Source: Candidatus Moranbacteria bacterium GW2011_GWC2_40_12 (GTDB taxonomy: Bacteria > Patescibacteriota > Minisyncoccia > Moranbacterales > UBA11712). Taken from it: a stretch of DNA of 56,134 nt. This document shows, piece by piece, positions 535 through 52,647 of this stretch. The stretch lies in the NCBI GenBank assembly GCA_000995965.1, contig LBYD01000002.1:336563-392696 (forward strand), in the 5' to 3' direction. Each line of letters begins with the position of its first letter. The stretch's first letter is position 1. Below the pieces are notes generated by a model, which saw only the letters and a program-made list of their open reading frames with translations, did no database searches and was not told the DNA's origin. The translations under genes and the position numbers were made by a program.

Positions 535-1143
535 TTAATCAAGCTTGCGTATGTTGAAAATAATAATGGATATATTTATCAAAAAAGTTATTCCCAAAAC
601 GATTCCAACAAGCCAACTCGTGAACTCTCCTTTCTGGATGACGAGAAAATTGAAGAGAAGATGGATGAATGCCGGAGGGACAACCGTTCGCATTGCCAGA
701 AATCTCACATTTCTTTCCCGGCTGGCGATGAGCGCTGAAATAAGGAAAAAAGTGAGAATATGAAGCAAGCCAATAGCTGAAAGGGAGAAAAGAGTGTCGC
801 TGTCAAGGCTGCCAATATCCCAAATCTTTTTCCTGTTAGTGAGAAGAATGAGAAATATTTCCGCTGCGCCAAAGAACGATCCGGCGACGAGAGACGCCGC
901 GAAGAATTTGAATCGGTTGAGATTGAAATATCCCCGCAAAATGAAAACAGCGGAAAAATATTTGAAACTTTCTTCAATAATGGCCGAAGCGACGAGAAAA
1001 AAAGTGAGATTATTATACACTTCAAAAATTATTTCTTTTCGGTAAAAAATGTTTACGACGACGGCCAGAAATTGTTCAGCGGCGACGGATGCCAGAGCCA
1101 TCAAGACTCCAGCAAGCGGGGCGCCAAGAAGAATGCTCGTCAT
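535..1143 (-). CDS. PrsW-like intramembrane protease (multi-pass membrane protein)
   Basis: 202-aa ORF with multiple hydrophobic segments. It has the motifs IIEESFKY (EExxK), FGAAE and FIHLLFN (HxxxN), as in the PrsW family. It overlaps the tsaD stop by 4 nt. Confidence 0.5.
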   Translation of the reverse strand: MTSILLGAPLAGVLMALASVAAEQFLAVVVNIFYRKEIIFEVYNNLTFFLVASAIIEESFKYFSAVFILRGYFNLNRFKFFAASLVAGSFFGAAEIFLILLTNRKKIWDIGSLDSDTLFSLSAIGLLHILTFFLISALIASRERNVRFLAMRTVVPPAFIHLLFNFLVIQKGEFTSWLVGIVLGITFLINISIIIFNIRKLD

Positions 1144-2282
1144 TTGTTTAGCCTTAAGTTTGCGTCAGCTTCGAGATTTCTCCATGTATTATAAAACGGT
1201 TTGCGGTTTTTCGAAAATTCCCACTTGAAATATCCGGCGGCGGCGATCATCACGGCGTTGTCCATTGAGTATTTTGCATCTGGTATCTGATATTTTGTAT
1301 TTGGCATAACTTCCTTTATTTTTTCACCCAATTGTTTTCTGAGTTCCTTGTTTGCCGAAACTCCTCCGCCGAGGAGGATCGTTTTCGGCTTGAATTTTTT
1401 GGCGGCTCGGATTGTTTTTGAAACCAGCACGTCAATCACGGCTTGCTGAAACTCGGCGCAGAGTTCGCCGGTGATTTTTTTGCTTTTTAGAATTCGAGGA
1501 TGGTCACGGACAGTATAAAGAAGGGCTGTTTTTAGCCCAGAAAAAGAAAAATTGAAATCAGGGGAATTGAGCATCGGTCTCGGCAAAGCTTGGCTTTGAG
1601 GAATTCCCGGGCGTTTAGTCGGGAAAGGGAAAATCCGAGCTTTAGCCGATGTTTGGAATTTATCAGCATAAGCGGAGACTATTGGTCCTCCGGGATATCC
1701 CAATCCCAAAATCTTCGCCGCTTTGTCAAAGGCTTCTCCGGCTGCGTCGTCAAGTGTCTGTCCGACAATCCTGAAATCCATATGTTTTTTCATGAGAATC
1801 AGCTCCGTATGCCCGCCGGAAACGATTAGGGCCAAAATAGGGAACCTGATAAGGTTCGACCTTGAGGAATTTCCTGACGGATAGTCCGGAAAGGGAAAGG
1901 TCGAATCTTGCAAAAAATTCGAGTAAATATGACCAACCACGTGGTGAACTCCCACCAGCGGTTTTTTCCAGGCATAAGCCAGGGTTTTCGCCGCGTTTGT
2001 TCCGATGAGAAGCGCTGGAATAAGTCCGGGACCCTGTGTGACGGCGATCAAATCAACATTGTTTTGCCTGATTTTATTTTTCGCAATGATCTTTTTGAGG
2101 AGCAAGGGCAGATTTTTGAGGTGATCCCGGGCGGCAAGATTGGGGACGACGCCGCCGAACGGGGCGTGCGTTTTTGTTTGGGAAGAGACATAATCATCCA
2201 TGACAAAAAAATTGCCCTTTTCCGCTTTCACGAGGGCAACAGCCGTGTCGTCGCAGGATGTTTCAATAGCAAGAATTTGCAT
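1140..2282 (-). CDS. tsaD: tRNA N6-adenosine threonylcarbamoyltransferase TsaD (Kae1/OSGEP family), carrying two in-frame repeat insertions
   Basis: MQILAIETSCDDTAVALV..., HHVVGH, LALIVSGGHTEL, DFNFSFSGLKTA, GGGVSAN. I moved the start to the internal Met at 2282, because the track ORF extends upstream to 2333. Confidence 0.9.
   Translation of the reverse strand: MQILAIETSCDDTAVALVKAEKGNFFVMDDYVSSQTKTHAPFGGVVPNLAARDHLKNLPLLLKKIIAKNKIRQNNVDLIAVTQGPGLIPALLIGTNAAKTLAYAWKKPLVGVHHVVGHIYSNFLQDSTFPFPDYPSGNSSRSNLIRFPILALIVSGGHTELILMKKHMDFRIVGQTLDDAAGEAFDKAAKILGLGYPGGPIVSAYADKFQTSAKARIFPFPTKRPGIPQSQALPRPMLNSPDFNFSFSGLKTALLYTVRDHPRILKSKKITGELCAEFQQAVIDVLVSKTIRAAKKFKPKTILLGGGVSANKELRKQLGEKIKEVMPNTKYQIPDAKYSMDNAVMIAAAGYFKWEFSKNRKPFYNTWRNLEADANLRLNK
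1584..1643 (-). repeat. 60-nt AAAGC-hairpin element, copy D (in frame inside tsaD)
   Basis: The reverse complement reads aaagctcggattttccctttcccgactaaacgcccgggaattcctcaaagccaagctttg. It is about 75% identical, over the same 60-nt length, to the intergenic copy at 14549-14608. Confidence 0.75.
1851..1910 (-). repeat. Diverged second copy (E) of the same element inside tsaD
   Basis: It shares the blocks ttgaggaatt and ggaaagggaaa and the terminal AAGG/CTT hairpin words with copy D. It has the same orientation and frame and a length of about 60 nt. Confidence 0.55.
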
Positions 2283-2394
2283 ATTCTCCAGTATAAAGCA
2301 TTTTGTGTAAAGTATAAAGGTTTTTTCGCGCATTTTTCGCTGCTCGGGTTGACTCTTGGTCGGTTTTCCATTATTATTCAGCCCGTGGCTTTGT

Positions 2395-2466
2395 GCCGCT
2401 ATCGTCTAGTGGTTAGGACAGCGGGTTTTCAATCCGTTAACCGGGGTTCGATTCCCCGTAGCGGTA
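2395..2466 (+). tRNA. tRNA-Glu (anticodon UUC)
   Basis: Cloverleaf folded by hand. Acceptor GCCGCTA/TAGCGGT, D arm GTCT/GGAC, anticodon stem GCGGG/TCCGT with loop TTTTCAA, T arm CGGGG-TTCGATT-CCCCG, discriminator A. No CCA is encoded. Confidence 0.9.
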
Positions 2467-3964
2467 CTAACAGCGATTTATTCGCGCCAAAAGTCTTGTT
2501 TAGTTCATATATAAGCCCCATTCGGGCGGTTCCAAATCCTTCGTCTCTTTTATACGAAATCCCCTCGGGAAATACCATTTTTTGGAACCTCGAATGTGAT
2601 TGCGACAAATCCAGCCATTGCCTGCCAAGATCGCTGATAAAATTGTTAGCATAAGATAAAATCCCTTCAACATCAAATTGATCAATCCTTGTTTCGCTCA
2701 AGGATATTTTTGTTGCCACGATTTCATTTTCAATTTCTTCTTTGCGTTCTTGAAATTCTTTCTGGCTGTATGATCCGTCTTCCCGCATTTCAAATATTCT
2801 CTTTCTTTTCCCATCCAAAATAGCAATTTGCCTTTCATATTTTTGGGCGTCCATTCTGAAATCTTTGCCCTTTTCCTCCCATAAGTCCAAAATTGTCGCT
2901 TTGAAGATTGCCAAAAACTTTTCTTTCGGTGTTCTTCGCTTGAGTTCGGCGACAAAATCTTCTTCCAGTTTCTTTTTGTTTATCGCTTTGCCATACATCG
3001 CACAATCTCTATTCCGGCAATGATAATATAAATACTTTCCGCCGTTCCCAGTGGAACAGCTTCCCGTCAAAGGCATTCCGCAATGACCGCAAAGAACAGT
3101 CCGCTTGAGCGGGAAATTGGGATTCAATCGGTTGTGCTTCACTCTGTTTGATCTTCCCGATAAAATAATTTCGATTTTATGATATTCTTCTTTGGTTATC
3201 ATAGGCTTATGGATTCCTCGAATTTCCTCTTTTGTCCACGGGTTCACTAGAATACCGGCGTAAAATTTCAAATGATTGCAAAATATCTTGCTCACGAATT
3301 GAGGACGGGTCTTTTTTCCTCGTATTTTGCTTAATCCCAGCTTATCAAATAGATTCAGCATCTCCGCTTGCGAATAGAGCCCTTTGGAAAATTCTTTCAG
3401 CCCCTTTTGAATAATGGGGAATATTTCTTCGTGCGGTTTGTCGGGTTCGTTTTTCTTTTCGCCCCTTTTCTTGGTTTGCGGGCTAATATAGCCAATTGGC
3501 GGTTGCCACGGATTTATTCCTTGATTCAACCTCGAAATCATTCCGTCAACACATCTTTGTTTTCTCACGGCATTGTCAAATTCAGCACTGCCAGCCAGCA
3601 CCGTTTCAACGAATTTCTCGGCTGGATTATTGCCAATCGGTTCCGAAACAGAATTGAGCGTAGCCCCATAATCAAGAAGCATTTTTCGCACGTAAAAATG
3701 ATCTTCCGTATTTCTCGCGAAGCGATCCACCTTGTAGACTACAAAAGCGTCAATCTTGCCTTTGTTTTTCCGGCAAAATTCAATAGCTCGCAAAAACTCG
3801 GCTCGATCCGCCGTCTTGGCTGAAGCCCCTTCTTCTCGGAAAACAGCCAAGACTTCAATGCCTCGATCTTTGCAGAAATTCCGGCAAAGCTCCTCTTGAT
3901 GTTCGAGAGAAGTGCCTTTGACTTGCTCCTCGCTTGATACTCTTGTATAGATTATGCCTTTCAT
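2429..3964 (-). CDS. Large serine recombinase (resolvase catalytic domain, recombinase domain, zinc ribbon and coiled coil)
   Basis: N-terminus MKGIIYTRVSSEEQ...VVYKVDRFARN. Zinc ribbon CGHCGMPLTGS...YYHCRNRDC. The last ~12 codons are antisense to the 3' half of tRNA-Glu, and the stop codon lies in the anticodon loop. Confidence 0.9.
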   Translation of the reverse strand: MKGIIYTRVSSEEQVKGTSLEHQEELCRNFCKDRGIEVLAVFREEGASAKTADRAEFLRAIEFCRKNKGKIDAFVVYKVDRFARNTEDHFYVRKMLLDYGATLNSVSEPIGNNPAEKFVETVLAGSAEFDNAVRKQRCVDGMISRLNQGINPWQPPIGYISPQTKKRGEKKNEPDKPHEEIFPIIQKGLKEFSKGLYSQAEMLNLFDKLGLSKIRGKKTRPQFVSKIFCNHLKFYAGILVNPWTKEEIRGIHKPMITKEEYHKIEIILSGRSNRVKHNRLNPNFPLKRTVLCGHCGMPLTGSCSTGNGGKYLYYHCRNRDCAMYGKAINKKKLEEDFVAELKRRTPKEKFLAIFKATILDLWEEKGKDFRMDAQKYERQIAILDGKRKRIFEMREDGSYSQKEFQERKEEIENEIVATKISLSETRIDQFDVEGILSYANNFISDLGRQWLDLSQSHSRFQKMVFPEGISYKRDEGFGTARMGLIYELNKTFGANKSLLVPLRGIEPRLTD

Positions 3965-3981
3965 TTTTTTTATAACTAAAA

Positions 3982-4076
3982 GGACGGTTCTGGTGAATCC
4001 AACAAACTAAAAGCCTGTTAGCAGAACCGCCCATTTAGTCGGACGATAATGGCTTTTAGTATTTCATTGGATTCAC
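3982..4076. repeat. Nested imperfect inverted repeats between the two recombinase genes
   Basis: gtgaatccaacaaactaaaagcc (3993-4015) pairs with ggcttttagtatttcattggattcac (4051-4076). ggacggttctg (3982-3992) pairs with cagaaccgccc (4022-4032). Confidence 0.6.
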
Positions 4077-4097
4077 ACTTATATCATAGGCGAAATT

Positions 4098-5240
4098 TCA
4101 ATCTTGAGCAAGATTATCAGCTATATTCCGCAAATATTCCGCAAATTCCTTTTTATTCGAGTTTACTGCTATATTCCCTAAAATCTTTTCGCTTTTTTCA
4201 TTATTAAGTTTAATACCCTGCACAATTTCAATTTGTCTATCCTCGGCAATTTTTCCATAGCCGTATGATCCAAAAGTCGTTCCAACATCATTATGTCCCA
4301 AATTTTGACTGATTGCCTTTTTTTGTTCTTCGGTTAAGGGACTTTGAATAAACTCTTTTACTATCAAATCCCGAAATATATGGGGTTTATAATACGGAAC
4401 ACCGGCTTTGATAAATCTTTTTTCAAGTATTTTTCTCACGGAACTGCCGCTTTTCCAAAAAATCGGTTCAATTTCTCCCGTGCTAAAGTAGCAAATATTT
4501 TCGGCTCCTTGCTCTTTTTTGGTCGCGGGGAAAATCGGATCATCCGGTTTGAATTTTTTTTCTTTGACTAAATAATCATACCAACTCGTGAAATAATCCA
4601 AGGGCTTTGCAAACGAAAGAGGAACAAGAGCAGTTGTTATTCTTTTGCGAAGCTTGGTTTTTATCTCAAAATTTGGATCTTGATCAATGACCAGCTTATT
4701 TCTATCAAAACTTTTTATCGGCAAGCTTATCAGTGCGGAAAGCCTGATTCCAGAAAGATAAAGCAAGGATATTATAGCTCTATCCCTATTATCAACGTCA
4801 TTCTTCACCTCAATACTCTCAATAACCGTCTTTATTTCTTCCACCGTTGGAACATTCTTTTTTTTGCTTTGAATAGCCGCTCTGGTTTCGTTTCTTGAAA
4901 GCTTCAAGCAATTGATAAATGACGGGTTGATTCTTGATCTGTATTTCGGTTGCAAGGCTAACCATTCGAAAAATGATCGTAGCAGCCTCAAAATGTTATA
5001 GGCGTAGCTTAGGCTTATTTTTTCTTCCGTGTTTTTCTTTTTCCTATTTTTCAACCAATCTCGAAATTCAACCGCTTGTTTTTTGTTGAAATTGGAAAAG
5101 TCGGCATTTTTCGTGAAATCCTGCCAATTCAAAATAGATTTTTCGAAAGCGGCGATTGAATCTTCCGAAAATCTTTCAATGTCTCTCAAATACTCAAAAT
5201 AATCTCTTTTCGCCATTTCATTTTTTTGCAATGTGTTCAT
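4098..5240 (-). CDS. Tyrosine recombinase / phage-type integrase
   Basis: SAM-like N-terminal domain. Catalytic signature GIRLSAL..., KPHIFRDLIV (HxxR), LGHNDVGTTFGSYGYG (catalytic Tyr region). Confidence 0.85.
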   Translation of the reverse strand: MNTLQKNEMAKRDYFEYLRDIERFSEDSIAAFEKSILNWQDFTKNADFSNFNKKQAVEFRDWLKNRKKKNTEEKISLSYAYNILRLLRSFFEWLALQPKYRSRINPSFINCLKLSRNETRAAIQSKKKNVPTVEEIKTVIESIEVKNDVDNRDRAIISLLYLSGIRLSALISLPIKSFDRNKLVIDQDPNFEIKTKLRKRITTALVPLSFAKPLDYFTSWYDYLVKEKKFKPDDPIFPATKKEQGAENICYFSTGEIEPIFWKSGSSVRKILEKRFIKAGVPYYKPHIFRDLIVKEFIQSPLTEEQKKAISQNLGHNDVGTTFGSYGYGKIAEDRQIEIVQGIKLNNEKSEKILGNIAVNSNKKEFAEYLRNIADNLAQD

Positions 5241-5318
5241 TTAGTTTAATTTAATTAATTGTTATATGTGGACATTTAAGCGTATAGAAATGTAATTATA
5301 TAATCCCTTTGATAGACA

Positions 5319-5702
5319 CTACACAAAGAGGTTGATTTTTTTATTGCAGAACTCACATAACCCCGTTTTTATTTGCTGGCTTCTATTCTGTTTTCCGATC
5401 TTTTTGCCGGTCATTTGAATTTTCTCACTCCCTGATATTGCTTTTACCGCCTTTTTGCACGTGAAGCAAAAATATTCATTTTCCCCAAGCTCAACTTTGT
5501 TTTTTGCCCGCTTTTTATCAAGAAACTCTTTCAGATCATCACCCATAACCAATAGGGGCTTTGCTGTTGGATCAAGAACTTTCAACCCGACTTTTGTCCA
5601 CCGGAAACAAGATTTCTTGTTTATGCCCAGAAGATTCGATATTTCTTGGACGGAGTAAGAGTGTCTTGTTTTTATAAGTTTTGTATTATATCTGCCGGAC
5701 AT
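5319..5702 (-). CDS. Small HTH plus C-terminal zinc-ribbon protein (possible excisionase or regulator)
   Basis: YSVQEISNLLGINKKSCFRWTKVG looks like a helix-turn-helix. CFTCKK...CEFCNKK gives CxxC...CxxC. It sits directly upstream of the integrase. Confidence 0.5.
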   Translation of the reverse strand: MSGRYNTKLIKTRHSYSVQEISNLLGINKKSCFRWTKVGLKVLDPTAKPLLVMGDDLKEFLDKKRAKNKVELGENEYFCFTCKKAVKAISGSEKIQMTGKKIGKQNRSQQIKTGLCEFCNKKINLFV

Positions 5703-5730
5703 TGTGATTTTGCATATAATTTTAATCTCC

Positions 5731-5880
5731 TTAATCGTCTATCTTGATCCCTTTTTCCTCTTGCCATTTTTCAAAGATTATCTCGGCAAGCGAACGAAAC
5801 TCGTCTCTGATTTGGGCGATTTCTTCATCGGAGTAATTTGGATCATTTAGCAATTCTTTGACTTGCTGAATCGTGAGCAT
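5731..5880 (-). CDS. Hypothetical 49-aa protein (below the track cutoff)
   Basis: My translation is MLTIQQVKELLNDPNYSDEEIAQIRDEFRSLAEIIFEKWQEEKGIKIDD*. It is packed between the two neighbouring ORFs on the same strand. Confidence 0.35.
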   Translation of the reverse strand: MLTIQQVKELLNDPNYSDEEIAQIRDEFRSLAEIIFEKWQEEKGIKIDD

Positions 5881-5884
5881 CGGG

Positions 5885-6166
5885 TTAGTTATAAATTCGC
5901 CGTTTTATGTCTTTTTGGATTGCTTGAAACTTATTCGGCTCGATCAAGAGGCGACTGTTATAAAAATCATTAAGTAATTTATCCGTGTTGCCGGTTTTCT
6001 TGATCGCGAAAATGCACCGCGAAGAATCGGCTTTATCAACTTCTTGCAAGATATGATCGAAATATACAAGAACGCTACATATCAGCAGATCGGATGTTTG
6101 ATAATAATTTTCCTGTCGTTCTTTTTTAATCGTCATAATTTTAATTTCTGGGAATGCTTCTTGCAC
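5885..6166 (-). CDS. Small hypothetical protein that resembles DUF5659-type phage/plasmid proteins
   Basis: The pattern YYQTSDLLICSVLVYF...RCIFAIKKTGNTDKLLNDFYNSRLLIEPNKFQAIQKDIKRRIY matches my memory of that family. This was not searched. Confidence 0.4.
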   Translation of the reverse strand: MQEAFPEIKIMTIKKERQENYYQTSDLLICSVLVYFDHILQEVDKADSSRCIFAIKKTGNTDKLLNDFYNSRLLIEPNKFQAIQKDIKRRIYN

Positions 6167-6231
6167 AAAAAAACCATACCTACAGTATGGATCATTTATA
6201 ATTTTAATCTTGAACTTTAGACTAGATTGGA

Positions 6232-7542
6232 CTACTTCGGACTATTTTTACTATGGGCTAATTCCAACTCTTTTAAGAGAATCGTTTCTTTTATGCCCCT
6301 ATAATCAAGTTCACTTTTCGAAACATTTTGATTGAACATTAAAGCAGTTTTTCCTCTTTTGGGGAAAAATAATTTTAAAATTTCTCCCTTAAAGCCAAGA
6401 GCATTGAAAATTGCGATGAATCTCTTTTTTCCGATTTCTTCCTTGATTCTTTGTGGTAGTTCACTTCTTTTTATTTCTCTGTTTGGATTTTCAAGCAAAT
6501 AAAGAAAAAATTCTAAGTTGCTTCCGATTGCATACGGCTTACTAATCAAATAAGTTTCGTTTACCCAAATTTCTCTGTCCTTGACTGATAGATTGTAGTA
6601 GTCGCGCTCTCGGGAAATATCAGCTTTAAGTTGCATTTTTTCCAGTGTTTTTTCCAATTCCTTCTTCTTAAACTCTCTAAGCTTGTTGAGCTTCACATCA
6701 GAAAAACTGAATTTTGTTCCTCCTGAATAATTTCCCCTTCCCCATTCTTCAAAACAACCTGCCTCTTTTAGCTTATTGAAATAAGCTTCCAGCATCCGCG
6801 AATCATCCATTCTGTCCTCGAAGTTAAAATAGTAATAATCAATGGTTATGCCGGTCGCGTTATTTGTCTGGGACTGAAATTCGAATTTTTCAATGATTAT
6901 GTCCAAGGCGTGATTGTATTTATCTTGTGAAGAGGCGAGGATTCTGTTGTGCTTTAGGCTTTGTCGATGCTGTCTTTCACTCTTCTTACTTTGAGTCTCA
7001 ATCTGTCCTCGCAATAAGGCAAGTTCTATATTTTTTTCAATCGGCAGTATTGGTTTTCTAGTTAAAACATCATCATAACCCAAATCATAAACTGTTTTTT
7101 GTTCTGGTATTTTAAACGAGGACTCTTTTTCTCTCTCTGTATGGAGATTTTTTTCATTAATCTTTTTTAAATTTTCATAATCTTTCCATCTATCATCATA
7201 AATTTTTTCTAATCCTGAAAAGAATTTAACAAAGCGTTCTGGATCTAATGAAATTTCCACAATTCGCTCTCTAAACGCATCGTCCCTATATTCAAAAGAT
7301 GTGATTTGTTTGCACTCCTGGAGATATTGCAGCGCCTTATATCTTAAATCTCCGAGTGTCTTGTCCGAAAAAGCTTGTTGGGTAAAAACGAGAGCCAAGG
7401 ACGCATCAAAATTTTTTGCAATTGCATCAATAGAAACTTTTTCTTTTGGGAGAATATCCAATTCACTGCTTATTGCTCTGGTGGTGTCGTATAGCGCTGC
7501 GAAATTGAGCAAATTGAGTTCGCTTGGCGATTTTATTTCCAT
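6232..7542 (-). CDS. Hypothetical protein (about 436 aa), no family recognised
   Basis: Long uninterrupted ORF that is Lys/Glu-rich and lies in the island. Start placed at MEIKSPSE. The track ORF begins at 7596. Confidence 0.6.
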   Translation of the reverse strand: MEIKSPSELNLLNFAALYDTTRAISSELDILPKEKVSIDAIAKNFDASLALVFTQQAFSDKTLGDLRYKALQYLQECKQITSFEYRDDAFRERIVEISLDPERFVKFFSGLEKIYDDRWKDYENLKKINEKNLHTEREKESSFKIPEQKTVYDLGYDDVLTRKPILPIEKNIELALLRGQIETQSKKSERQHRQSLKHNRILASSQDKYNHALDIIIEKFEFQSQTNNATGITIDYYYFNFEDRMDDSRMLEAYFNKLKEAGCFEEWGRGNYSGGTKFSFSDVKLNKLREFKKKELEKTLEKMQLKADISRERDYYNLSVKDREIWVNETYLISKPYAIGSNLEFFLYLLENPNREIKRSELPQRIKEEIGKKRFIAIFNALGFKGEILKLFFPKRGKTALMFNQNVSKSELDYRGIKETILLKELELAHSKNSPK

Positions 7543-7603
7543 AGTAATTCTAATCTTAATTTCCTTTATTTTACGCCGAATAAGACAGAAAATCAAGGGG
7601 AAT

Positions 7604-7632
7604 TTGCATATTTAAGCGAAAAGGGGTAATCT
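7604..7632 (+). promoter_or_regulatory. Candidate sigma70-type promoter for the structured RNA
   Basis: TTGCAT (7604-7609), a 17-nt spacer, then TAATCT (7627-7632). Confidence 0.35.
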
Positions 7633-7638
7633 AAAATT

Positions 7639-7777
7639 GTTCACCTAAAACAGAATTTTTGTGAGGAGAAACTGCTTATTCTATCCGATTACGGGTAGCA
7701 ATGGGCAGTCGAGTTCCATAATCGGACTCTCCTCACGGATTGTCTGTTATGGGTGAACAGCTCGGCTGTCCTTTTTT
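7639..7777 (+). ncRNA. Candidate structured small RNA or leader with an intrinsic terminator (family unknown)
   Basis: Three nested helices: gttcacctaaaacag/ctgttatgggtgaac, gtgaggag/ctcctcac and tccgatta/taatcgga. They are followed by acagc-tcg-gctgt and a T tract. Confidence 0.45.
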
Positions 7778-7971
7778 GATAGATCCGTCTGATAAAAATG
7801 AAGATTAATATAATGGATTGGTTAAAAAGCAATAGATTATATTTCTCAATGGCAGTCATTTTTTTGGCTGTTTTTTATAATTTTTCTTGTTGTGGAAAAA
7901 GCTTTATAAAAGGGATAAATTATCCGTAATACGGATTTATTACGGACAGACCATGTAATATTAGAAGTGAT

Positions 7972-8514
7972 ATGTATTGCAAAAAATGTGGGAATGAAAT
8001 AAAAGATTCTGCTAACTTCTGTAGAAATTGCGGGACAAAAATAGATGTTGCTGAATACAGACCTCTAATTCGAGTCAATTTTTATAGTGAAGATTGGACA
8101 AGAAGAAGGGTTTTTGCCATTGCTTCAATGCCATATTATGACGTAATGGCGGATGAAAATTTTATATATTTCATCAAACTCCCAAAATATGACTCTAGCC
8201 TAGTGGGGTTAATAGTTGGTTTACTGTTATTTAATATTATTGGTGCGTTCATTGGAGCATCAATCGGAAGCTCAAGCGATGCGAAAAAAAGAGGATTATA
8301 TAGGGCAGCTTGGATTGATTCTGGAAACAAGATAATTTCAAATGATTTTGCAAAAGACATTCAGATCAAAATTCCAATAAATGAAGCAAGAGAATTATTG
8401 ACTCTAAAAAAACATCAGATATTTTTTTCCAATGGAAAAGAAAAATTTGTGTTGAGGAAGAACAAGGGTGAAGTCGAGAGATTAAATAATTTCTTACAAA
8501 GTGATGTTTTGTGA
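7972..8514 (+). CDS. Zinc-ribbon protein with one TM segment (paralogue 1 of 3)
   Basis: N-terminus MYCKKCGNEIKDSANFCRNCG. Hydrophobic segment LVGLIVGLLLFNIIGAFIGASIG. Confidence 0.65.
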   Translation: MYCKKCGNEIKDSANFCRNCGTKIDVAEYRPLIRVNFYSEDWTRRRVFAIASMPYYDVMADENFIYFIKLPKYDSSLVGLIVGLLLFNIIGAFIGASIGSSSDAKKRGLYRAAWIDSGNKIISNDFAKDIQIKIPINEARELLTLKKHQIFFSNGKEKFVLRKNKGEVERLNNFLQSDVL

Positions 8515-9505
8515 AAAATGTGGTAATAAATTAACAGCAGATTCGAAGTTTTGCGATAGTTGTGGGTTTAGTATCTCGGATAATTCTTTTTCTGCGACTA
8601 GTGATTTAAATCATCAAAATATTGAAGCCAATAAGCATAATAAGAAAGTGCTTATTATATTTTTTTCAGTTCTAGCTATATTTTTTATTTTTATTATTTA
8701 TTTAGATTCTTCTGATAATCCAACTCCAAAAGAAGAGCAAATAAACAATCCCAGCATCGAAAGTCTGAATTCTTTAGATAAACAGCAAAGTGATAGAAAA
8801 GCAAAGCAAGCAAAGGCGGACGCATACGAAAATATATCTGCGGCTGTTGTAAACATCCTGTGTCCATATTCAAACGAATTATTTAGTATTGATAGTGATG
8901 GGACTGGAGGATCGGGAACGATTATAGACGCAAGCGGTTTGGTTGTTTCAAATTCTCATATAATTCCGCAAGACCAGAAAAACTTGAATATAACAGAGGA
9001 TGGATGCTTTGTAATATTGCCAGATATCAAAACTGGAGCACCAAAAGAAATATATCTTGCAAAACCGCTGGTATTTAATGATTTGAGTGATAAATATGAT
9101 TTAGCCTTTTTGACTATTTACGATGTTTATACCGATGAGAATGGTCAACAATATGGAAAATATCCAAAAGAGCTTCCAGTATTTGATGATACCGGACTTT
9201 GCAAAGAAGAACAGATTAAGCTTGGTGAAAGCGTTAGGATTATCGGTTATCCCATATCAAGCGGAGGATATAATTTGACAATTACAGACGGCATTGTTAG
9301 TAGTTTTTCAGATGATGGATTGATTCTAACATCTGCAAAAATTGACCAAGGAAATTCAGGTGGACTGGCAATTGATAAGGATGGGTGCATGTTGGGAATC
9401 CCATCATCAGTTAGCAGGGGTCAATATGAAAATTTAGGTGTAATTATTCCAGCGAGCTCTATGAATGATTTCATTAAAGAGATAGAAAAAATATTAAATC
9501 AATAA
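8501..9505 (+). CDS. Zinc-ribbon-anchored trypsin-like (S1/HtrA-type, no PDZ) serine protease
   Basis: MMFCEKCGNKLTADSKFCDSCG, a TM segment, then GTGGSGTIID...VSNSH (His), YDLAFL (Asp) and DQGNSGGLAID (Ser). It overlaps the upstream gene by 14 nt. Confidence 0.75.
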   Translation: MMFCEKCGNKLTADSKFCDSCGFSISDNSFSATSDLNHQNIEANKHNKKVLIIFFSVLAIFFIFIIYLDSSDNPTPKEEQINNPSIESLNSLDKQQSDRKAKQAKADAYENISAAVVNILCPYSNELFSIDSDGTGGSGTIIDASGLVVSNSHIIPQDQKNLNITEDGCFVILPDIKTGAPKEIYLAKPLVFNDLSDKYDLAFLTIYDVYTDENGQQYGKYPKELPVFDDTGLCKEEQIKLGESVRIIGYPISSGGYNLTITDGIVSSFSDDGLILTSAKIDQGNSGGLAIDKDGCMLGIPSSVSRGQYENLGVIIPASSMNDFIKEIEKILNQ

Positions 9506-9509
9506 TAGT

Positions 9510-10676
9510 ATGTATTGCATAAAATGCGGAAGAAAATTAAAGGAATTCGATAATTATTGTGATCATTGCGGTAAAAGAATATCTGGAAGTGAGATAAAGA
9601 ATAAAGAAACAGGAAAAATTGATCTACCAAGATCTGGATTTACTAAAGAGTTTAACTTCAAAAAACAATTTTTATTTTGGTTTATTCCGTCGGGCTTGAT
9701 ATTGTTGGATATTTTTTACCTCACCTCATCCAATATATTCATTAGCCTAGTATGTTCAATTATCATAGGGGGGATTTTTGCATTCTTGATAATTCAGATA
9801 AGGAGAGAAAACTACATGCCGAAACAAAAGAAAATTATTAATCAAATTCCAACTTATCGGGAAAATAGAACAGCTACATCTCTCTCTAAACCAATTATTA
9901 AAAAATCTTGGCTGGACAGTCAAGCAGTTAGGACAACGTTGATTGTTTTAGGTGTTGGGGTAGTGTTAATCTTTAGATTTGGTGATTTTTTAAACAACGA
10001 TGCTGTCGAAAAAAATAATCAAGCAATCTCAGACCTTAATTCCGGAAATAGTAGTCAAGCCATATCGCATCTGCAGCAAGCTTCTGAAGGAGCAATCACA
10101 AATGATACAAAAATAAACACTCTTAAAAATCTCGCATATGCCTATTCAACCGAGGGCAAAAACGATTTGTCATTGAAAACCTTTAAGGAAGCACTTGCAT
10201 TAGCAAGTAATGATTCTTTCGATTATTATTTAATTTCTGGTGAAATAGGATTATTAGAGAGGAAACCTGACCTAGCTTTGTCAAATTATAACAAAGCATA
10301 TCAAATCAATCCCAACAATTTTCAGATAAATAATGCTCTTAATCTGTTTTACATTGACCTGGATGAAAGTGCAAAATCCTATGCAAATTATCCAAAAGCT
10401 CTGGGATATGCCCAAAAGGCTTACGAGGTTAGTGAAGCGTCGGTTAAAAATATTGCCAAACAAAATCTCGCTATATCTTATCTTTTTAACAAAAAATATG
10501 AACAAGCAATAACGCTCTTTCTTTCAGCTGATTTAGCTAAAGAGCCCTATGCTAATTATTGGCTTGGTGTTACATACGTAGCAAAGGGAGACTCTGCTAA
10601 TGCTAAGATTTATCTTAAAAAAGCAAAAGATGCTGGAATAAAACTTGAGCCGGAACTTTCTGAATACCTATATTAA
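9510..10676 (+). CDS. Zinc-ribbon, TM and TPR-repeat protein
   Basis: MYCIKCGRKLKEFDNYCDHCG, two or three TM segments, and a C-terminal run of TPR-like repeats (...LAYAYSTEGKNDLSLKTFKEAL..., ...YWLGVTYVAKGDSANAKIYLKKA). Confidence 0.7.
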   Translation: MYCIKCGRKLKEFDNYCDHCGKRISGSEIKNKETGKIDLPRSGFTKEFNFKKQFLFWFIPSGLILLDIFYLTSSNIFISLVCSIIIGGIFAFLIIQIRRENYMPKQKKIINQIPTYRENRTATSLSKPIIKKSWLDSQAVRTTLIVLGVGVVLIFRFGDFLNNDAVEKNNQAISDLNSGNSSQAISHLQQASEGAITNDTKINTLKNLAYAYSTEGKNDLSLKTFKEALALASNDSFDYYLISGEIGLLERKPDLALSNYNKAYQINPNNFQINNALNLFYIDLDESAKSYANYPKALGYAQKAYEVSEASVKNIAKQNLAISYLFNKKYEQAITLFLSADLAKEPYANYWLGVTYVAKGDSANAKIYLKKAKDAGIKLEPELSEYLY

Positions 10677-10709
10677 ATCCTGAGGTTAACGTTTATTATA
10701 CATACAAAA

Positions 10710-11039
10710 ATGCTTAGGTTGCTTAATAGAAAAAATTATCTAATTTCAGTAGTTATTTTCTTGGCTATCTTTTTTCTATCCGGATGTTCGGATTATTCCA
10801 CGGAAAAAGTTGAAGAAAGCCCTGCATTTGAAGATACTCCTGTTATTGAAGATTCAGATTCTGATCTATACGATCAAGAGCCTCAAACATTCAATGGATA
10901 TGAGTGCACTGATGATTGTTCAGGACACGAAGCTGGTTATAATTGGGCTGAAGAAAAAGGCATAACCGATCCAAGTGATTGCGGAGGAAATTCAAATTCC
11001 TTTATAGAGGGTTGCGAAAGCTATGCCGAAGGACAGTAA
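10710..11039 (+). CDS. Small lipoprotein, Cys-rich C-terminus
   Basis: Signal peptide plus lipobox FLSGCS. Ends in CTDDCSGHEAGYNWAEEKGITDPSDCGGNSNSFIEGCESY. Confidence 0.6.
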   Translation: MLRLLNRKNYLISVVIFLAIFFLSGCSDYSTEKVEESPAFEDTPVIEDSDSDLYDQEPQTFNGYECTDDCSGHEAGYNWAEEKGITDPSDCGGNSNSFIEGCESYAEGQ

Positions 11040-11069
11040 TGATTATGATAAATAGTAATTTTTATTAAA

Positions 11070-11276
11070 ATGATGAAGAAAATATTTTCACTCACATTTA
11101 TTTTATTATTGGCACTGTTTTTATCTGGATGCAGCAGTGAGCCAGCAGTCAAAAAAAGTGATACAGGAATTTGTCATAAAGATGGAACAAACTATTACAA
11201 GAACACAAAGAATTTTACTCCCTATGATTCGATAGAGGATTGTCTCGATAGCGGAGGAAGGTTGCCTAAAAAATAA
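11070..11276 (+). CDS. Small lipoprotein
   Basis: Signal peptide plus lipobox FLSGCSS, with the conserved-looking segment CHKDGTNYY...CLDSGGRLPKK. Confidence 0.55.
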   Translation: MMKKIFSLTFILLLALFLSGCSSEPAVKKSDTGICHKDGTNYYKNTKNFTPYDSIEDCLDSGGRLPKK

Positions 11277-11282
11277 ATACAT

Positions 11283-11546
11283 ATGGGATATAATTTTTTC
11301 GATTTATTAACTAAGATTACACCTACCTTTACAATAAGACATAGAATGCGTTTTTTTGGCATGCAATCTATAGAAAAATATAAAATTGTTGGAAGTCGCA
11401 ACAAAGAAGTGGAGGAGCTCATAACCATTTGCAGATATTGGGCTGAACAAATATTAAAAAGAAATCCAGATGACGAAGAAGCTAAAGCATTCAGAAATTT
11501 TCCAAATAAATCTTTTTCAGATTGGATTAAATCAAGGGAAGAATAA
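11283..11546 (+). CDS. Hypothetical 87-aa protein
   Basis: The ORF is in the operon, 7 nt after the previous stop. No motif recognised. Confidence 0.4.
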   Translation: MGYNFFDLLTKITPTFTIRHRMRFFGMQSIEKYKIVGSRNKEVEELITICRYWAEQILKRNPDDEEAKAFRNFPNKSFSDWIKSREE

Positions 11547-11567
11547 ACTTCTATTTTTTTCAACAAT

Positions 11568-13337
11568 ATGGTCAACTACATTTTTATCATCATAATAATA
11601 ATCAGCTATATTATTCTTTGGTTTATCATAAATCTTTTAGCTTATTTTTTGTCCGTTGCTTTCAAAACCAAAAAAATATTTGGAGTGATGGCAGGGTTGG
11701 CATACATTGTTTATTACATTTTTAATTTTTTATTAGGAATAGGATTAATTTGGTTCGGAATATTGCTTTTAATAAATAGAGAATTTCTTTGGTTTATTAT
11801 TTATCTGTTTATCGGAGCAAGCATAATAAGCTTTATTATCAATTTGCTCCAGTTTCCCTTTATTTTTCTCACGAATTATTTTTCGTATAAGATTCAGGAA
11901 AGAGATTTTGATGATGACATAGCAACTGCAGAAATAATTGGCGAAAAAGGCAAAGTAATTAAAAGAATTGAGGGCGATACTGCGATATTGGTCAGACTCG
12001 CTAAATATTTTGTCCTTCTTTACATCCTAAATTTTGCATCTGTATTTCTTAATCCGGAAAAAATTGCAACATGGAGATGGGGTGATTATATCCTCTGGCC
12101 TTTTTTGTGGCTTATTTCTCAAGCTGTTGTTGTTGGTATTCTGTATATTATTTATCACAAGATAAGGTTTAAATTGTTTTTTCCTGAAGATAAGCGACAT
12201 TTTTTTATTCAAGTTTTTAAGATATGTTTCTTTTTTGTATTAATAGCAACTATCTTGATATATGGCATATTATATTTTATTGAAAACAAAGCAGATAAAA
12301 ATACTAACGAAATTCAGGACATTACATCGCAAGAACAATCCAGCGCGCTATATGATGCTTCTTCGTGGGAAATTGTAAATATAATTAATGAAGATGTTAA
12401 TGGAGATAATCAAGCCGAAGAGATTTATTATTTAAAATCAATTAAATCTGCGGGGGTTGATGCGGCTGATAAAGATGAGTTTGGAATAAAAATTGTTGTT
12501 GCAAAGGACAACAATATTTTATTCGAATATTCTCCAAGCGAAGATAAGGCTACCGATAAATATTGGCCAGTTGGCTATTATCGATCTGACACAAATTCTT
12601 CAAAGAATTTTTATCTCGACGACTTATCAGGAGATCGGTTGCCAGAGATTATTGTCCAAACTGGTATCACAGGCGCGTCTGATATTGAAGACTGCTTGAA
12701 TATAATCAGTTATAACAAGACAAATCAAACATTCAATTTAGTTAATAAGGAGGAATTTTGTTACACCTTTAACACTGGCATCAAATTTGATAATCTTTCT
12801 TCTTTAAATGGCCGACAAATAATTAAGGCTGTTCCCTTAAATGGCGAGATTGTAGGGAATAAAGTCGAGCAGTCCTTTTCAATCGATGTTTATACTTGGT
12901 ATGGTAATAATTTTTCAATATTGAAAAAATTTAAAAGTTCAAGATCATACGAAGGCGGATTGAATGCTCTCGATGGGGAAATTTACTTAATAAGAAAATA
13001 TTTTTGGAATTTATCATCTGATGATCTAAAAATACTTCAGACAGATCAGGCAGTTCGGGATCTTAAAACAAAGGCAGATGCTTATCGACAAATGATAGAT
13101 CTTAAAAATAGAAAAGCTCAAACTCTGTTAAATCAGATTAATCTAATAAATGAACAGATAAATAATTCAAACTTATCAGAAAAAGAAAAGACAGAATTGC
13201 TAGAAGAAAAAAATTATCTTTTGCAAAAAACTAGTGAGGAAGAAGATAAATATAGGCAACTGCTAGAGCAGGTAGATAAACAAAAAAATGGACTGCTTAA
13301 TGATATAAATAAAATGGAAAGCGGGGTGAAATTATGA
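11568..13337 (+). CDS. Large membrane protein with a multi-TM N-terminus, FG-GAP-like Asp-rich motifs and a C-terminal coiled coil
   Basis: About 7 hydrophobic segments in the first 240 aa. DVNGDNQAEEIYY and DDLSGDRLPEIIVQTG look like FG-GAP/calcium-loop motifs. The tail is heptad-rich (LINEQINNSNLSEKEKTELLEEKNYLLQK). Confidence 0.55.
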   Translation: MVNYIFIIIIIISYIILWFIINLLAYFLSVAFKTKKIFGVMAGLAYIVYYIFNFLLGIGLIWFGILLLINREFLWFIIYLFIGASIISFIINLLQFPFIFLTNYFSYKIQERDFDDDIATAEIIGEKGKVIKRIEGDTAILVRLAKYFVLLYILNFASVFLNPEKIATWRWGDYILWPFLWLISQAVVVGILYIIYHKIRFKLFFPEDKRHFFIQVFKICFFFVLIATILIYGILYFIENKADKNTNEIQDITSQEQSSALYDASSWEIVNIINEDVNGDNQAEEIYYLKSIKSAGVDAADKDEFGIKIVVAKDNNILFEYSPSEDKATDKYWPVGYYRSDTNSSKNFYLDDLSGDRLPEIIVQTGITGASDIEDCLNIISYNKTNQTFNLVNKEEFCYTFNTGIKFDNLSSLNGRQIIKAVPLNGEIVGNKVEQSFSIDVYTWYGNNFSILKKFKSSRSYEGGLNALDGEIYLIRKYFWNLSSDDLKILQTDQAVRDLKTKADAYRQMIDLKNRKAQTLLNQINLINEQINNSNLSEKEKTELLEEKNYLLQKTSEEEDKYRQLLEQVDKQKNGLLNDINKMESGVKL

Positions 13338-13594
13338 AAAAAATATTATTTGTTATCTCGATTTTAGCGTTCGGATTTATAGCCGTAAATTTTGCCAGTG
13401 CATATTCTTACAGAGTTGGCGGATATTACAGGAGCAGTGGAACGTATGTTCAGCCGTATTACAGAACATCTCCCGATAGCTCTCGCTGGAACAATTATTC
13501 GACGCGAGGAAACTATAATCCTTATACCGGACAAAAGGGATATACCAGCCCGTATCGTTCTTACAACTCATATAGATCATACAGCCGATGGTAG
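13334..13594 (+). CDS. Secreted Tyr/Ser/Arg-rich low-complexity peptide
   Basis: Signal peptide MKKILFVISILAFGFIAVNFASA, then YSYRVGGYYRSSGTYVQPYYR...YRSYNSYRSYSRW. ATGA overlap with the upstream gene. Confidence 0.5.
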   Translation: MKKILFVISILAFGFIAVNFASAYSYRVGGYYRSSGTYVQPYYRTSPDSSRWNNYSTRGNYNPYTGQKGYTSPYRSYNSYRSYSRW

Positions 13595-13689
13595 CAGTAT
13601 TCACACATTTCACTTAAAGGAAAGCGAAAACAAACGCAAGGGGATCAACAAAAACTCAAATCATATAACTGGCAGGAATGTTCTTGTTG

Positions 13690-14000
13690 ACCCTCGCACA
13701 ACTTGATTTTGTTGCGACACGCTCTTTTTTCTTGCCAAAAATTGCCTGCAAGCTTTCGTCAACTTTTGGAGAAAAGAGGCGTTTCGCAAAAAACGAAGTT
13801 GTGCAACATTTGTTTTCGCACTTTTTATACAACCCCCTGCCCCCTTTGCAAGGGGAAAGCCTTTCTTTCGCATCGAGCGTGCAGAAAGGCGTTATACGGG
13901 CGTGCTCGCTTCGCTACGCCTTGAACAGGGCTCAAGCCCTGCCATTCGGCAGGAACGCCCGTATTGCCCCTGAAAGCCGCCTAGAAAGGACTAACAACGA
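13690..14000. other. ORF-free, GC-enriched segment with extensive nested pairing (candidate structured RNA, or island-boundary or recombination sequence)
   Basis: Long-range pair gcacaactt (13696-13704) with aagttgtgc (13796-13804). Perfect 10-bp pair atacgggcgt (13894-13903) with acgcccgtat (13955-13964), which encloses the hairpins cagggc-tcaa-gccctg and ctgcc-attc-ggcag. Further hairpins: cccct-ttgca-agggg and gcctttct...agaaaggc. Confidence 0.4.
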
Positions 14001-14188
14001 AACTATAATCTTGCTTCAATACTTCTCTTAATTCTTGCCACTGCTTCAATTCTGTGATAACTTGGTTCCAACTATTGAGTAGGTAGTGTACCAGAATGAA
14101 ATATGGAGCAATTTGCTTGTTTTTTGGAAGGTGTGTTATGATTCCTGAAGATTTCAGGGGGATTAATAAGCTTTAATAAAAAAACCAC

Positions 14189-14461
14189 ATGAAAAAGAAA
14201 GAGCTTGTGGAAGCCATCGTGGCAAAAACCGAGATGGCGAAAAAGGACGTTCTTATGGTCCTTGAAACAATGACGGAAGTCGTGAAAAGCACTGTCACAA
14301 AAGAGGCAGTCGAAATTCCGGGGATCGTGAAGATCGAGAAAAAACATCGAGCCGCCCGGATGGGGCGCAATCCGATGACCGGAGAATCTATCAGCATTCC
14401 GGCCAAGACTGTGCTGAAAGCCCGGGTTCTCAAGAAGCTCAAGGATGCGGTGATGAAGTAG
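14189..14461 (+). CDS. hup: DNA-binding protein HU
   Basis: MKKKELVEAIVAKTEMAKKDV...RMGRNPMTGESISIPAKTVLKARVLKKLKDAV. HU/IHF fold signature, 90 aa. Confidence 0.9.
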   Translation: MKKKELVEAIVAKTEMAKKDVLMVLETMTEVVKSTVTKEAVEIPGIVKIEKKHRAARMGRNPMTGESISIPAKTVLKARVLKKLKDAVMK

Positions 14462-14464
14462 TTC

Positions 14465-14541
14465 AAAGTTCGACTCTAGGCGGAGCCGATAGTCGAACTT
14501 TTCGAAACAAAGGATTCCGCAGTAATTTGCGGAATTTTTTG
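14465..14541 (+). terminator. Two consecutive hairpin terminators after hup
   Basis: agttcgact...agtcgaact followed by TTTT, then ttccgc-agtaatt-tgcggaa followed by TTTTTT. Confidence 0.7.
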
Positions 14542-14548
14542 TTTATTT

Positions 14549-14608
14549 AAAGCTCGGCTTTTTTCCTTCCCCGACTGCCGTCGTGGAATTCCTCAAAGCC
14601 AAGCTTTT
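14549..14608 (+). repeat. 60-nt AAAGC-hairpin element, copy A (intergenic)
   Basis: The sequence is aaagctcggcttttttccttccccgactgccgtcgtggaattcctcaaagccaagctttt. It has terminal mini-hairpins AAAGC-TCG-GCTTT and AAAGC-CAA-GCTTT and a central CCCCGAC-TGCC-GTCGTGG hairpin. Confidence 0.8.
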
Positions 14609-14609
14609 G

Positions 14610-14638
14610 ATCCCGCCATGATTTGCGGGGTTTTTTGT
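14610..14638 (+). terminator. Third terminator, a near duplicate of the second
   Basis: cccgc-catgattt-gcgggg plus TTTTTT. The flanks gttttttgtttgtttaaaaagc parallel ttttttgtttatttaaagc after the second terminator. Confidence 0.65.
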
Positions 14639-14725
14639 TTGTTTAAAAAGCTAAGGTTTACACTTCTTATTTTATAATGCTACAATCTTCTTGTTGACAA
14701 TAGACTATGTCGCAAGATTACGCCC

Positions 14726-50935: not shown

Positions 50936-50957
50936 ATTCGCTTCACTCATTCTTTTT

Positions 50958-50997
<40 letters not shown>

Positions 50998-51257
50998 GAT
51001 AAGGCATGCAAGTCGAGGGCCGATTTTGATCGGCCCGGCAAACGGGTTAGTAACGCATAGGAACGTACCCTCGAGTCTCGAATAATCCCTCGAAAGGGGG
51101 AATAATGCGAGATAGTTCTCTTCGGAGTAAAGATTTATCGCTTGAGGAGCGGCCTGTGTCCTATCAGCTTGTTGGCGGGGTAAAGGCCCACCAAGGCTAT
51201 GACGGGTAGGGGATGTGAGAGCATGATCCCCAACATTGGGACTGAGACACTGCCCAA

Positions 51258-51288
<31 letters not shown>

Positions 51289-51332
51289 CGGCAATGGGCG
51301 AAAGCCTGACCGAGCGACGCCGCGTGGAGGAT

Positions 51333-51363
<31 letters not shown>

Positions 51364-51373
51364 AGGGAAGAAA

Positions 51374-51776: not shown

Positions 51777-52187
51777 CTGACGGTACCTTGCGAATAAGAG
51801 GTTGCTAACTCTGTGCCAGCAGCAGCGGTAATACAGAGACCTCAAGCGTTATCCGGATTTATTGGGCGTAAAGCGTGTGTAGGTGGCGATGATAGTCAGA
51901 TGTCAAATTCCAGCGCTCAACGTTGGAGCTGCATCTGAAACGTCATCACTAGAGGCAAGTAGAGGCTCATGGAACATATGGTGTAGCAGTGAAATGCGTT
52001 GATATCATATGGAACGCCAAAGGAGAAGTCAGTGAGCTGGGCTTTGCCTGACACTGAGACACGAAAGCGTGGGTAGCGAACGGGATTAGATACCCCGGTA
52101 GTCCACGCCCTAAACGTTGCCAACTAGGTCTTGGAAGTATCGACCCTTTCAGGACCGTAGCTAACGCGTTAAGTTGGCCGCCTGGGA

Positions 52188-52219
<32 letters not shown>

Positions 52220-52341: not shown

Positions 52342-52372
<31 letters not shown>

Positions 52373-52599: not shown

Positions 52600-52647
<48 letters not shown>

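Follow-up and report, generated by a model that had tools for sequence, protein, structure and literature searches.

In a window of 56,134 nucleotides (nt) from Candidatus Moranbacteria bacterium GW2011_GWC2_40_12 (contig LBYD01000002.1, positions 336,563 to 392,696; "the window" denotes this whole stretch), the gene for a large serine recombinase (LSR) reads antisense into a tRNA-Glu gene. This overlap very probably marks one border of an 11,624-bp integrative element, which its own LSR would have inserted at the 3′ extremity of the host's tRNA-Glu gene, thereby splitting the LSR gene. The body of the gene abuts the tRNA, its displaced 3′ end lies at the opposite border, the two halves are in register, host DNA flanks both, and the arrangement recurs in the family of homologous loci. 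The features on which this interpretation depends are the following.

2395–2467, plus strand: tRNA-Glu(TTC), identified with ARAGORN, the anticodon beginning at tRNA position 34
2429–3964, minus strand: integrated-form LSR open reading frame (ORF) of 511 amino acids (aa), the sole long ORF there
2464–2467: attL core GTAC, corresponding to tRNA G71–C74, the sole identity with the other junction
14088–14091: attR core GTAC, from comparison of the junctions
13981–14091, minus strand: displaced 3′ end of the LSR gene (P arm), from a six-frame motif scan, a hidden Markov model (HMM) of the tail and translation

The recombinase reading frame ends within tRNA-Glu

Rfam recovers the tRNA over positions 2395–2466 (64.6 bits), and over 75 nt the gene matches the tRNA-Glu of G001, a relative from the same genus, at 100% identity. 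On the opposite strand, the LSR ORF terminates at a TGA codon that is the complement of TCA at 2429–2431, or tRNA positions 35–37, and its final 12 codons (VPLRGIEPRLTD) are the complement of 2432–2467. A preliminary description of this DNA had placed the stop codon in the anticodon loop and the last 12 codons antisense to the 3′ half of the tRNA, and on both points ARAGORN, Rfam and the ORF coordinates agree with it. Residues 1–499 (2468–3964) are encoded by element DNA, residues 501–511 (2432–2464) and the stop codon are the complement of host tRNA, and the Val-500 codon between them (2465–2467) falls inside the shared GTAC core. The overlap of ORF and tRNA is confirmed as real rather than fortuitous, because it recurs in 46 of 80 homologous loci, with the stop codon on positions 35–37 in all seven of the tRNA-Glu loci among them.

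Judged from its sequence, the protein is a large serine recombinase, an assignment made because a resolvase catalytic domain (Pfam Resolvase PF00239, E 2e-29, residues 4–148) and a recombinase zinc ribbon (Zn_ribbon_recom PF13408, E 2.3e-7, residues 285–342) are both present. Across 28 of 28 aligned sequences, R8, V9 and S10 do not vary, in keeping with a catalytic domain that has the serine nucleophile, and Val-500 is likewise invariant. Residues 245–416 of a homologue, L026, match the C-terminal domain of the A118 integrase (PDB 4kis, E 4.4e-8), and the N-terminal part of that protein matches, by sequence, the resolvase-family entry PDB 3guv and the TP901-1 catalytic domain; these matches to solved structures stop before the tail region. 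The LSR is present once in the genome, which comprises 1.14 Mb in 10 contigs.

The displaced end of the gene marks the far border

Because unsplit and split forms of the gene are interspersed in a tree of its homologues, we suspected that they represent two states of one gene. This mixing prompted a search for the missing tail, carried out first as a six-frame motif scan and afterwards with an HMM built on the tails that unsplit homologues carry. The model has one match in the window (E 4.5e-12, model positions 1–27, starting at the Val), and the tail is single-copy in the genome. The displaced piece opens with a Val codon at 14089–14091, continues through 35 codons at 13984–14088 (HYLLNSWNQV...SPF), and ends with a stop codon at 13981–13983. 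The gene body ends with the Val at 2465–2467, and the halves are thus in register, with host trailer DNA directly adjoining the displaced tail. The element defined by these borders extends from 2468 to 14091.

The two junctions share GTAC only and lack long direct repeats, as the preliminary description had remarked, although it had been unable to locate the second junction, which the displaced tail now places at 14088–14091. We propose that the crossover took place at A73–C74, corresponding to the GT of the Val-500 codon, the exact dinucleotide being deduced because the cores overlap across loci. The earlier expectation that the crossover lies within the tRNA gene would hold in this case, with the site at the last bases, G71–C74, and not in the anticodon loop.

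A crossover in or near the anticodon loop, with the element supplying the 3′ half of the tRNA and the host half displaced or lost, appears very improbable. It would account for a stop codon that falls on tRNA positions 35–37, and one relative, G002, has a tRNA-Glu that was indeed interrupted in its anticodon loop, by a different event. However, the window contains no second copy of the tRNA 3′ part (at most 3 mismatches in 23 or 18 nt), the three matches to a 12-mer of that part with 2 mismatches all lie outside the island, and a search of the genome found no second copy either. The one candidate, at 14047–14092, is no better than chance, and the far junction is instead occupied by an LSR tail beginning exactly at the Val codon. 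The position of the stop codon also follows the tRNA species, falling on 35–37 in seven of seven tRNA-Glu loci, whereas with Ala, Met, Lys and Ile it lies at other positions or past the end of the tRNA; because it tracks the tRNA species in this way, we regard the stop in the anticodon loop as a by-product of a fixed reading frame. It had also been suggested that the 3′ half of the tRNA was created or altered by integration. This did not hold: the tRNA is host DNA throughout and constitutes the B arm of attL, and because its 3′ half was not made by integration, no displaced tRNA half exists.

A crossover in the T loop was considered on account of 14–26-nt repeats in three Met-tRNA loci, L040, L099 and L100, and an 18-nt repeat in G001, and was dropped after displaced tails were found. 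The true far junction of L040 lies ~170 nt away from its repeat, and the G001 remnant probably derives from another kind of element.

It could also be supposed that the tail near HU was left behind by a second recombinase gene, since decayed, and that the overlap with the tRNA arose by accident when a stop codon was lost. Decay of this kind has precedents in G030, where nothing but the final 118 aa of such a gene is left next to tRNA-Ala, and in L028, which has a decayed copy of the tail. The fragment in the window, however, begins at precisely the codon at which the resident gene passes out of element DNA, the host trailer adjoins it, all 35 of its codons are intact, and the same pairing of body and tail is found in 11 other loci. 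A relic consequently has very little probability.

Host flanks and unoccupied sites in relatives

The locus was compared with those of G001 and G002 (same genus) and of G003 and G007 (same family). This comparison identified the following host features on the two sides of the island.

1140–2333, minus strand: tsaD, the host left flank (Pfam TsaD, E 1.9e-80), colinear with G001, G002, G003 and G007
2349–2377, plus strand: native promoter-like site of tRNA-Glu (TTGACT, 17 nt, TATTAT), with a homologous upstream stretch in G001 and G002
14092–14188, plus strand: native tRNA trailer and HU upstream region (B′ arm), starting CAGAATGA, by match to G007 and G003
14189–14461, plus strand: HU gene, the host right flank (Pfam Bac_DNA_binding, E 3.1e-23), a neighbour of tRNA-Glu in G001, G002, G003 and G007

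The gene order in all four relatives is tsaD, HU, tRNA-Glu, and then the gene equivalent to window 14726–16318. In each, the 3′ end of tRNA-Glu faces HU directly, and in the window the island sits between them. The LSR is absent from the tRNA-Glu locus of all four relatives examined. The 5′ side of the tRNA is host DNA, because the native promoter-like site, homologous in G001 and G002, lies directly upstream, and the right border was placed near 14092 by synteny, since window DNA from ~14092 corresponds to the tRNA trailer of G007 and G003. The unoccupied G007 site reads ..CTAC followed by CAGAATCA, the window counterpart of which is CAGAATGA, and window DNA from 14092 onward aligns with the G003 stretch between the tRNA end and HU. 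Joining the host left arm to the host right arm yields a tRNA ending in ACCA, followed by the trailer as in G007. After integration, the tRNA-Glu gene is without an encoded CCA (..GGTAC, then TAA), whereas the unoccupied sites of G003 and G007 encode ACCA; the window tRNA-Glu would be expected to rely on the CCA-adding enzyme. The preliminary description had correctly placed tsaD to the left of the tRNA. The true start of that gene is probably the ATG whose complement is 2281–2283, judging from the N terminus of its G001 counterpart.

The block comprising tRNA, island and HU is inverted relative to the four relatives. This inverted block, 2284–14700, includes the tRNA promoter and the HU terminator, its break points fall in the spacers between tsaD and tRNA and between HU and the next gene, both outside the att sites, and contigs of run X9 support the present adjacencies. 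Two terminator-like hairpins occur in direct repeat at 14513–14551 and 14609–14647. An inversion, together with a G+C content of 0.43 over the LSR region, which is host-like, might suggest that the LSR is a resident, domesticated gene, for example an invertase behind the inverted block, and not mobile. Of the explanations weighed here, this is the least probable. The gene is absent from the locus in G001, G002, G003 and G007, close full-length homologues are sporadic (3 of 60 relatives, each at a tRNA or a contig end), and the end points of the inversion lie outside both att sites. The mobility assumed in the preliminary description thus stands, and the comparison with unoccupied tRNA-Glu loci that it called for yielded four without the recombinase and mapped the right junction to the trailer of G007 and G003.

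The tRNA-Glu locus is a repeated target, probably of other types of element as well. In G002 (L023, ~3790–3990, minus strand), an insert of 120 nt interrupts the anticodon loop of the host tRNA-Glu. It consists of a second, complete tRNA-Glu with the same sequence as the native tRNA of G007, and perfect 13-bp inverted repeats flank it. By analogy, this insert resembles a relic of the "tRNA-dependent lysogeny" described in PMC10865867. In G001 (L022, ~4058–4345, minus strand), a 20-nt piece of the 5′ end of tRNA-Glu comes after the promoter; a spacer of 75 nt then leads to a full tRNA-Glu and one of 108 nt to an 18-nt repeat of the tRNA 3′ end, which precedes the native trailer.

Recurrence of the split gene among homologous loci

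The survey covered the best 80 of 153 confirmed relatives, with one genome per species and proteins 39–74% identical. Loci were sorted by the end of the LSR ORF, using ARAGORN, into the following classes.

46 of 80: ORF end in an antisense tRNA (Ala 20, Met 10, Glu 7, Lys 4, Ile 2, Arg 2, Tyr 1)
1 of 80: ORF end in a tmRNA (L059, by Rfam)
5 of 80: break at or near a contig end in a T-arm-like tail
15 of 80: unsplit, with a conserved extension of ~30 aa and without a tRNA
2 of 80: other tails (L062, L096)
2 of 80: degenerate tRNA-like DNA downstream (L090, L103)
2 of 80: truncated (L064, L076)
4 of 80: early stop
3 of 80: contig end before the tail

In every alignment conservation stops at ..KSxLV, that is, at Val-500, and the alignment with homologous LSRs proposed in the preliminary description thereby locates the end of homology. 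At the Val-500 position, 37 of the 41 alignable tRNA-type loci have a GTN codon, complementary to N72-A73-C74; an encoded CCA is kept in 26 of these loci and absent from 10. G053 shares with the tRNA-Glu loci a stop codon on tRNA positions 35–37. Displaced tails occur upstream of the LSR, on the same strand, in 11 of the 80 loci, and one more lies 12.2 kb upstream in the L039 genome, beyond the surveyed locus. Eight junction pairs align in register, with a shared GTR codon, cores of 4–12 nt, and elements of 7.2–11.6 kb.

A FastTree phylogeny of 72 loci and the window intermingles unsplit and split forms, and the unsplit label needs at least four changes on well-supported branches. The smallest supported clade containing the window (support 99) holds seven unsplit, two tRNA-Glu and one tRNA-Ile forms, and the window's nearest relatives in the tree are unsplit forms, up to 75% identical. 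Rfam detects no RNA gene beside the LSR in six unsplit loci.

Several individual loci merit description. In L059 (11511–11895), the LSR reads into the 3′ end of a tmRNA (Rfam, 127.8 bits), and has its displaced tail 9.6 kb upstream from where it begins. L062 and L064 have a displaced conserved tail upstream, with an LSR body that ends in DNA without a recognisable tRNA, and may represent other targets or decayed sites. The LSRs of L051 and L053 are near-identical (tree end branches 0.0066 and 0.0024) and are found at different tRNA-Ala genes, CGC and TGC, which have their last bases, ..GGTCCACCA, in common and differ in their T arms. Target recognition may rest mainly on the acceptor end, if the sequences of these loci are a guide. 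In G030 (L006, 1528–1884), only the last 118 aa of a related LSR are left, still reading into tRNA-Ala(CGC), and the element has decayed.

Two unsplit loci have unusual surroundings. L029 (11460–16482; L031 is identical) contains an unsplit LSR followed by four single-ORF cassettes, whose ORFs are mutually unrelated (blastp E > 0.1) and have no Pfam match, and each cassette is followed by a repeat of ~430–520 nt in which a hairpin and TGGTG occur together with a copy of the LSR tail. This organisation is like that of an integron, and it could come from insertion beside the LSR's own site. L028 (11626–17110) has an unsplit LSR followed by genes of the type found in cyclic-oligonucleotide-based antiphage signalling systems (Cap15 receptor domain, SMODS), with the decayed copy of the LSR tail 5.4 kb downstream of the unsplit LSR.

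Proposed integration and the exchanged C terminus

In the free circle, the LSR gene would cross attP and encode a protein of ~535 aa, in which a short disordered linker connects a conserved body, ending in ..KSLLV, to an amphipathic helix that is also conserved. Strand exchange would take place within the Val-500 codon, the GT of which is the complement of the discriminator A73 and C74. Following integration, the gene body would abut the tRNA at attL and read antisense to the first in-frame stop, which for tRNA-Glu would be the complement of TCA at positions 35–37, and the last 35 codons would stay behind at attR, the opposite end of the element, next to the old tRNA trailer and HU. The body of the tRNA would remain intact, only the encoded CCA and the trailer being replaced.

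An enzyme other than the LSR might have carried out this insertion. The LSR is adjoined by a tyrosine integrase gene (4098–5240, minus strand; Pfam Phage_integrase and Phage_int_SAM_1), and the encoded protein could have inserted the island as in classical tRNA islands, with the LSR a passenger at its edge. Such a pairing of LSR and tyrosine integrase is seen in 6 loci, and only tyrosine integrases were known to target tRNA genes according to a statement in PMC4383910. Even so, we consider the tyrosine integrase an improbable agent: the island has no tRNA-fragment direct repeat, its ends are the two in-register halves of the LSR gene, and in 74 of the 80 loci there is no homologue of this tyrosine integrase beside the LSR. 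In Pfam scans of further loci, the LSR is the sole recombinase among 10 ORFs in L099, and none of the 10 ORFs scanned beside the LSR in L100 matches a recombinase family. Because the island is bounded by the two halves of the LSR gene, integration is assigned to the LSR, which would have catalysed the event.

The comparison of sequences supports a C terminus that would differ between the free and integrated states, as the preliminary description had anticipated when it suggested that the recombinase tail depends on integration state; the last 35 codons are found 11.6 kb away at the other junction. In the integrated window form, 11 tRNA-antisense residues replace 35 native ones. The structure predicted by AlphaFold2 for L026, an unsplit homologue (28-row alignment, mean predicted local distance difference test (pLDDT) score 83) contains long helices at residues 348–395 and 401–425, a segment with pLDDT < 50 at residues 495–505, a helix at 507–523, and then a disordered end. 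The long helices correspond to the coiled coil inserted in the zinc-ribbon domain, a feature that extends to the window LSR by virtue of 73–75% identity. Because the model is of low confidence at 495–505 and the helix begins only at 507, the cut is predicted to fall in the linker before the helix. The conserved tail helix is amphipathic, with the pattern W-N-Q-x3-E-L-x2-W.

We offer one further reading, which we regard in all its parts jointly as rather unlikely. The splitting of the gene might serve as a sensor of integration state, such that the full-length form, produced from the circle only, would be competent for integration, and the integrated form, with a tRNA-antisense tail in place of the helix, would have a different activity or stability. 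Directionality would then derive partly from the topology of the gene and not only from a separate directionality factor. The family would use the near-universal A73-CCA end and switch easily among at least seven tRNA species and tmRNA, and the site of an unsplit relative such as L029, by collecting unrelated cassettes, would constitute a serine-recombinase analogue of the integron.

Searches for excised forms and points of difficulty

Several points weigh against the interpretation of the island as an element inserted by its own LSR with splitting of the LSR gene. Assembled Logan contigs from four runs cover the island with identical sequence and contain no joint between the att sites, although contigs cannot show rare forms. 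A loose end at 2442 in the run contigs was considered as an excision joint and rejected, its sequence being absent from the window and the genome. None of 26 whole-contig loci has a terminal overlap, and no free circle was found. The core of 4 nt is by itself weak evidence. The stretch at 14047–14092 was weighed as a decayed tRNA 3′ half and rejected, with an alignment score of 17 compared with a shuffled null of 16.1 ± 2.7; its partial likeness to the tRNA (GTAG..GTAC) is better read as the P arm. The Pfam Recombinase domain PF07508 is not reported for the window LSR at E ≤ 0.01; it is reported in the homologue L099 (E 3.5e-6).

Other difficulties concern the family and the locus. Unsplit homologues occur in chromosomal-looking contigs of up to 646 kb that are labelled as other phyla, so that unsplit forms need not be free elements. 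In the Met-tRNA clade of L099 and L100, the junctions share 22–26 nt and no conserved tail was found, and the design in this clade may differ from that of the window. The interpretation accounts neither for the inversion of the tRNA-island-HU block nor for the tyrosine integrase adjoining the LSR. In addition to these points, viral contigs yielded two relatives, one of them broken at a contig end, and no attP form was seen among them.

Cargo and other features

Two further stretches of the island were delineated.

5319–13594: low-G+C cargo encoding DUF5659, zinc-ribbon membrane proteins, a trypsin-like peptidase, a TPR protein and large unmatched proteins, from family scans
13700–13985: G+C-rich structured stretch just downstream of the displaced tail (fold z-score −3.44 versus shuffles)

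No capsid, terminase or defence families were recognised in the cargo, PHROGs and PADLOC gave nothing explanatory, and the island's small ORFs match no family; no candidate recombination directionality factor was identified. The preliminary description had characterised everything to the right of the tRNA as AT-rich mobile DNA. A mobile island does lie there, but its low G+C content (0.30–0.36) is confined to 4001–13000, and the recombinase itself (2001–4000) is at 0.43. The stretch at 13700–13985 has a 79% identical second copy at G000:C5:37964-38213 (L112) and matches no Rfam family at threshold; contigs of runs X9 and X16 place 13806–13881 in another context. Outside the island, a 16S rRNA gene match at 50952–53163 is longer than the model, and Rfam calls a group I intron at 52789–53163.

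Relation to known systems

Integration into tRNA genes has so far been treated as the domain of tyrosine integrases, and serine integrases were not known to use tRNA genes as of 2015, in the wording of PMC4383910. The observations made here point to a large clade of serine integrases, mostly from small-genome metagenome-assembled genomes of the Patescibacteria type, that targets the final bases of tRNA and tmRNA genes and leaves the tRNA body uncut. The free and integrated states would encode different enzymes, possibly constituting a switch of directionality or stability. The displaced tail serves as a sequence tag for the far border of islands without repeats, so that their ends can be mapped to the base, and short sites at a conserved, universally present target may interest tool builders. 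Literature searches gave us no account of a serine integrase whose gene is divided when it integrates at the end of a tRNA, although the supplementary lists of the tycheposon, TIGER/Islander and ProBord studies may hold cases.

Several systems share individual features with the window element. In Islander-type islands, the island likewise lies 3′ of the tRNA with the integrase gene at the tRNA-proximal edge; as PMC4383910 presents them, these islands are defined by a displaced tRNA fragment and by tyrosine integrases only, whereas the window element has no tRNA fragment and a serine enzyme. The tycheposon preprint reports an LSR in 27 of 937 integrase-carrying elements and states that most of those elements integrate at island-associated tRNA genes. 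These Prochlorococcus tycheposons and cryptic elements likewise carry integrases and lie at tRNA genes, and the flanks described in the preprint's account of them are partial tRNAs, without mention there of a split recombinase. The ProBord study notes a preference of tyrosine integrases for RNA targets (PMC13626063). In the tRNA-dependent lysogeny of mycobacteriophages, as described in PMC10865867, a tyrosine integrase destroys the host tRNA, a phage-borne tRNA compensates, and the core is ~10 bp. The tRNA target and the short core of that system are similar to those of the window element, but here the tRNA is intact, and it is the G002 remnant that resembles the mycobacteriophage system more closely.

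Canonical LSRs, such as those of A118/LI, TP901-1, phiC31 and Bxb1 and SPbeta SprA, likewise have a resolvase-type catalytic domain ahead of a zinc-ribbon C-terminal region, long coiled-coil helices, short cores and no long direct repeats. In those phages, attP is not known to lie within the integrase ORF, and the known targets are protein genes or intergenic DNA. In the window element, by contrast, attP would lie in the last codons of the gene, and the targets of its family are the 3′ ends of tRNA and tmRNA genes.

Phage Mx8 of Myxococcus xanthus has a tRNA gene as its target. In its IntP/IntX system, and in those of the SSV type, the integrase gene likewise lies across attP, and its C terminus is changed or partitioned by integration. 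The Mx8 and SSV integrases are described in PMC4383910 as "known to extend across attP", and the alteration of the C terminus of Mx8 IntP is the subject given in the title of Tojo et al. (1996), reference 24 of that paper. The Mx8 and SSV enzymes are tyrosine recombinases with longer segments of identity that rebuild the tRNA, whereas here the enzyme is an LSR, the core is 4–12 nt, the tRNA body is uncut, and a discrete terminal helix would be exchanged. The window element is a serine-recombinase counterpart of Mx8 IntP/IntX, of a kind aimed at the A73-CCA end of tRNA and tmRNA genes and widespread in small-genome bacteria.

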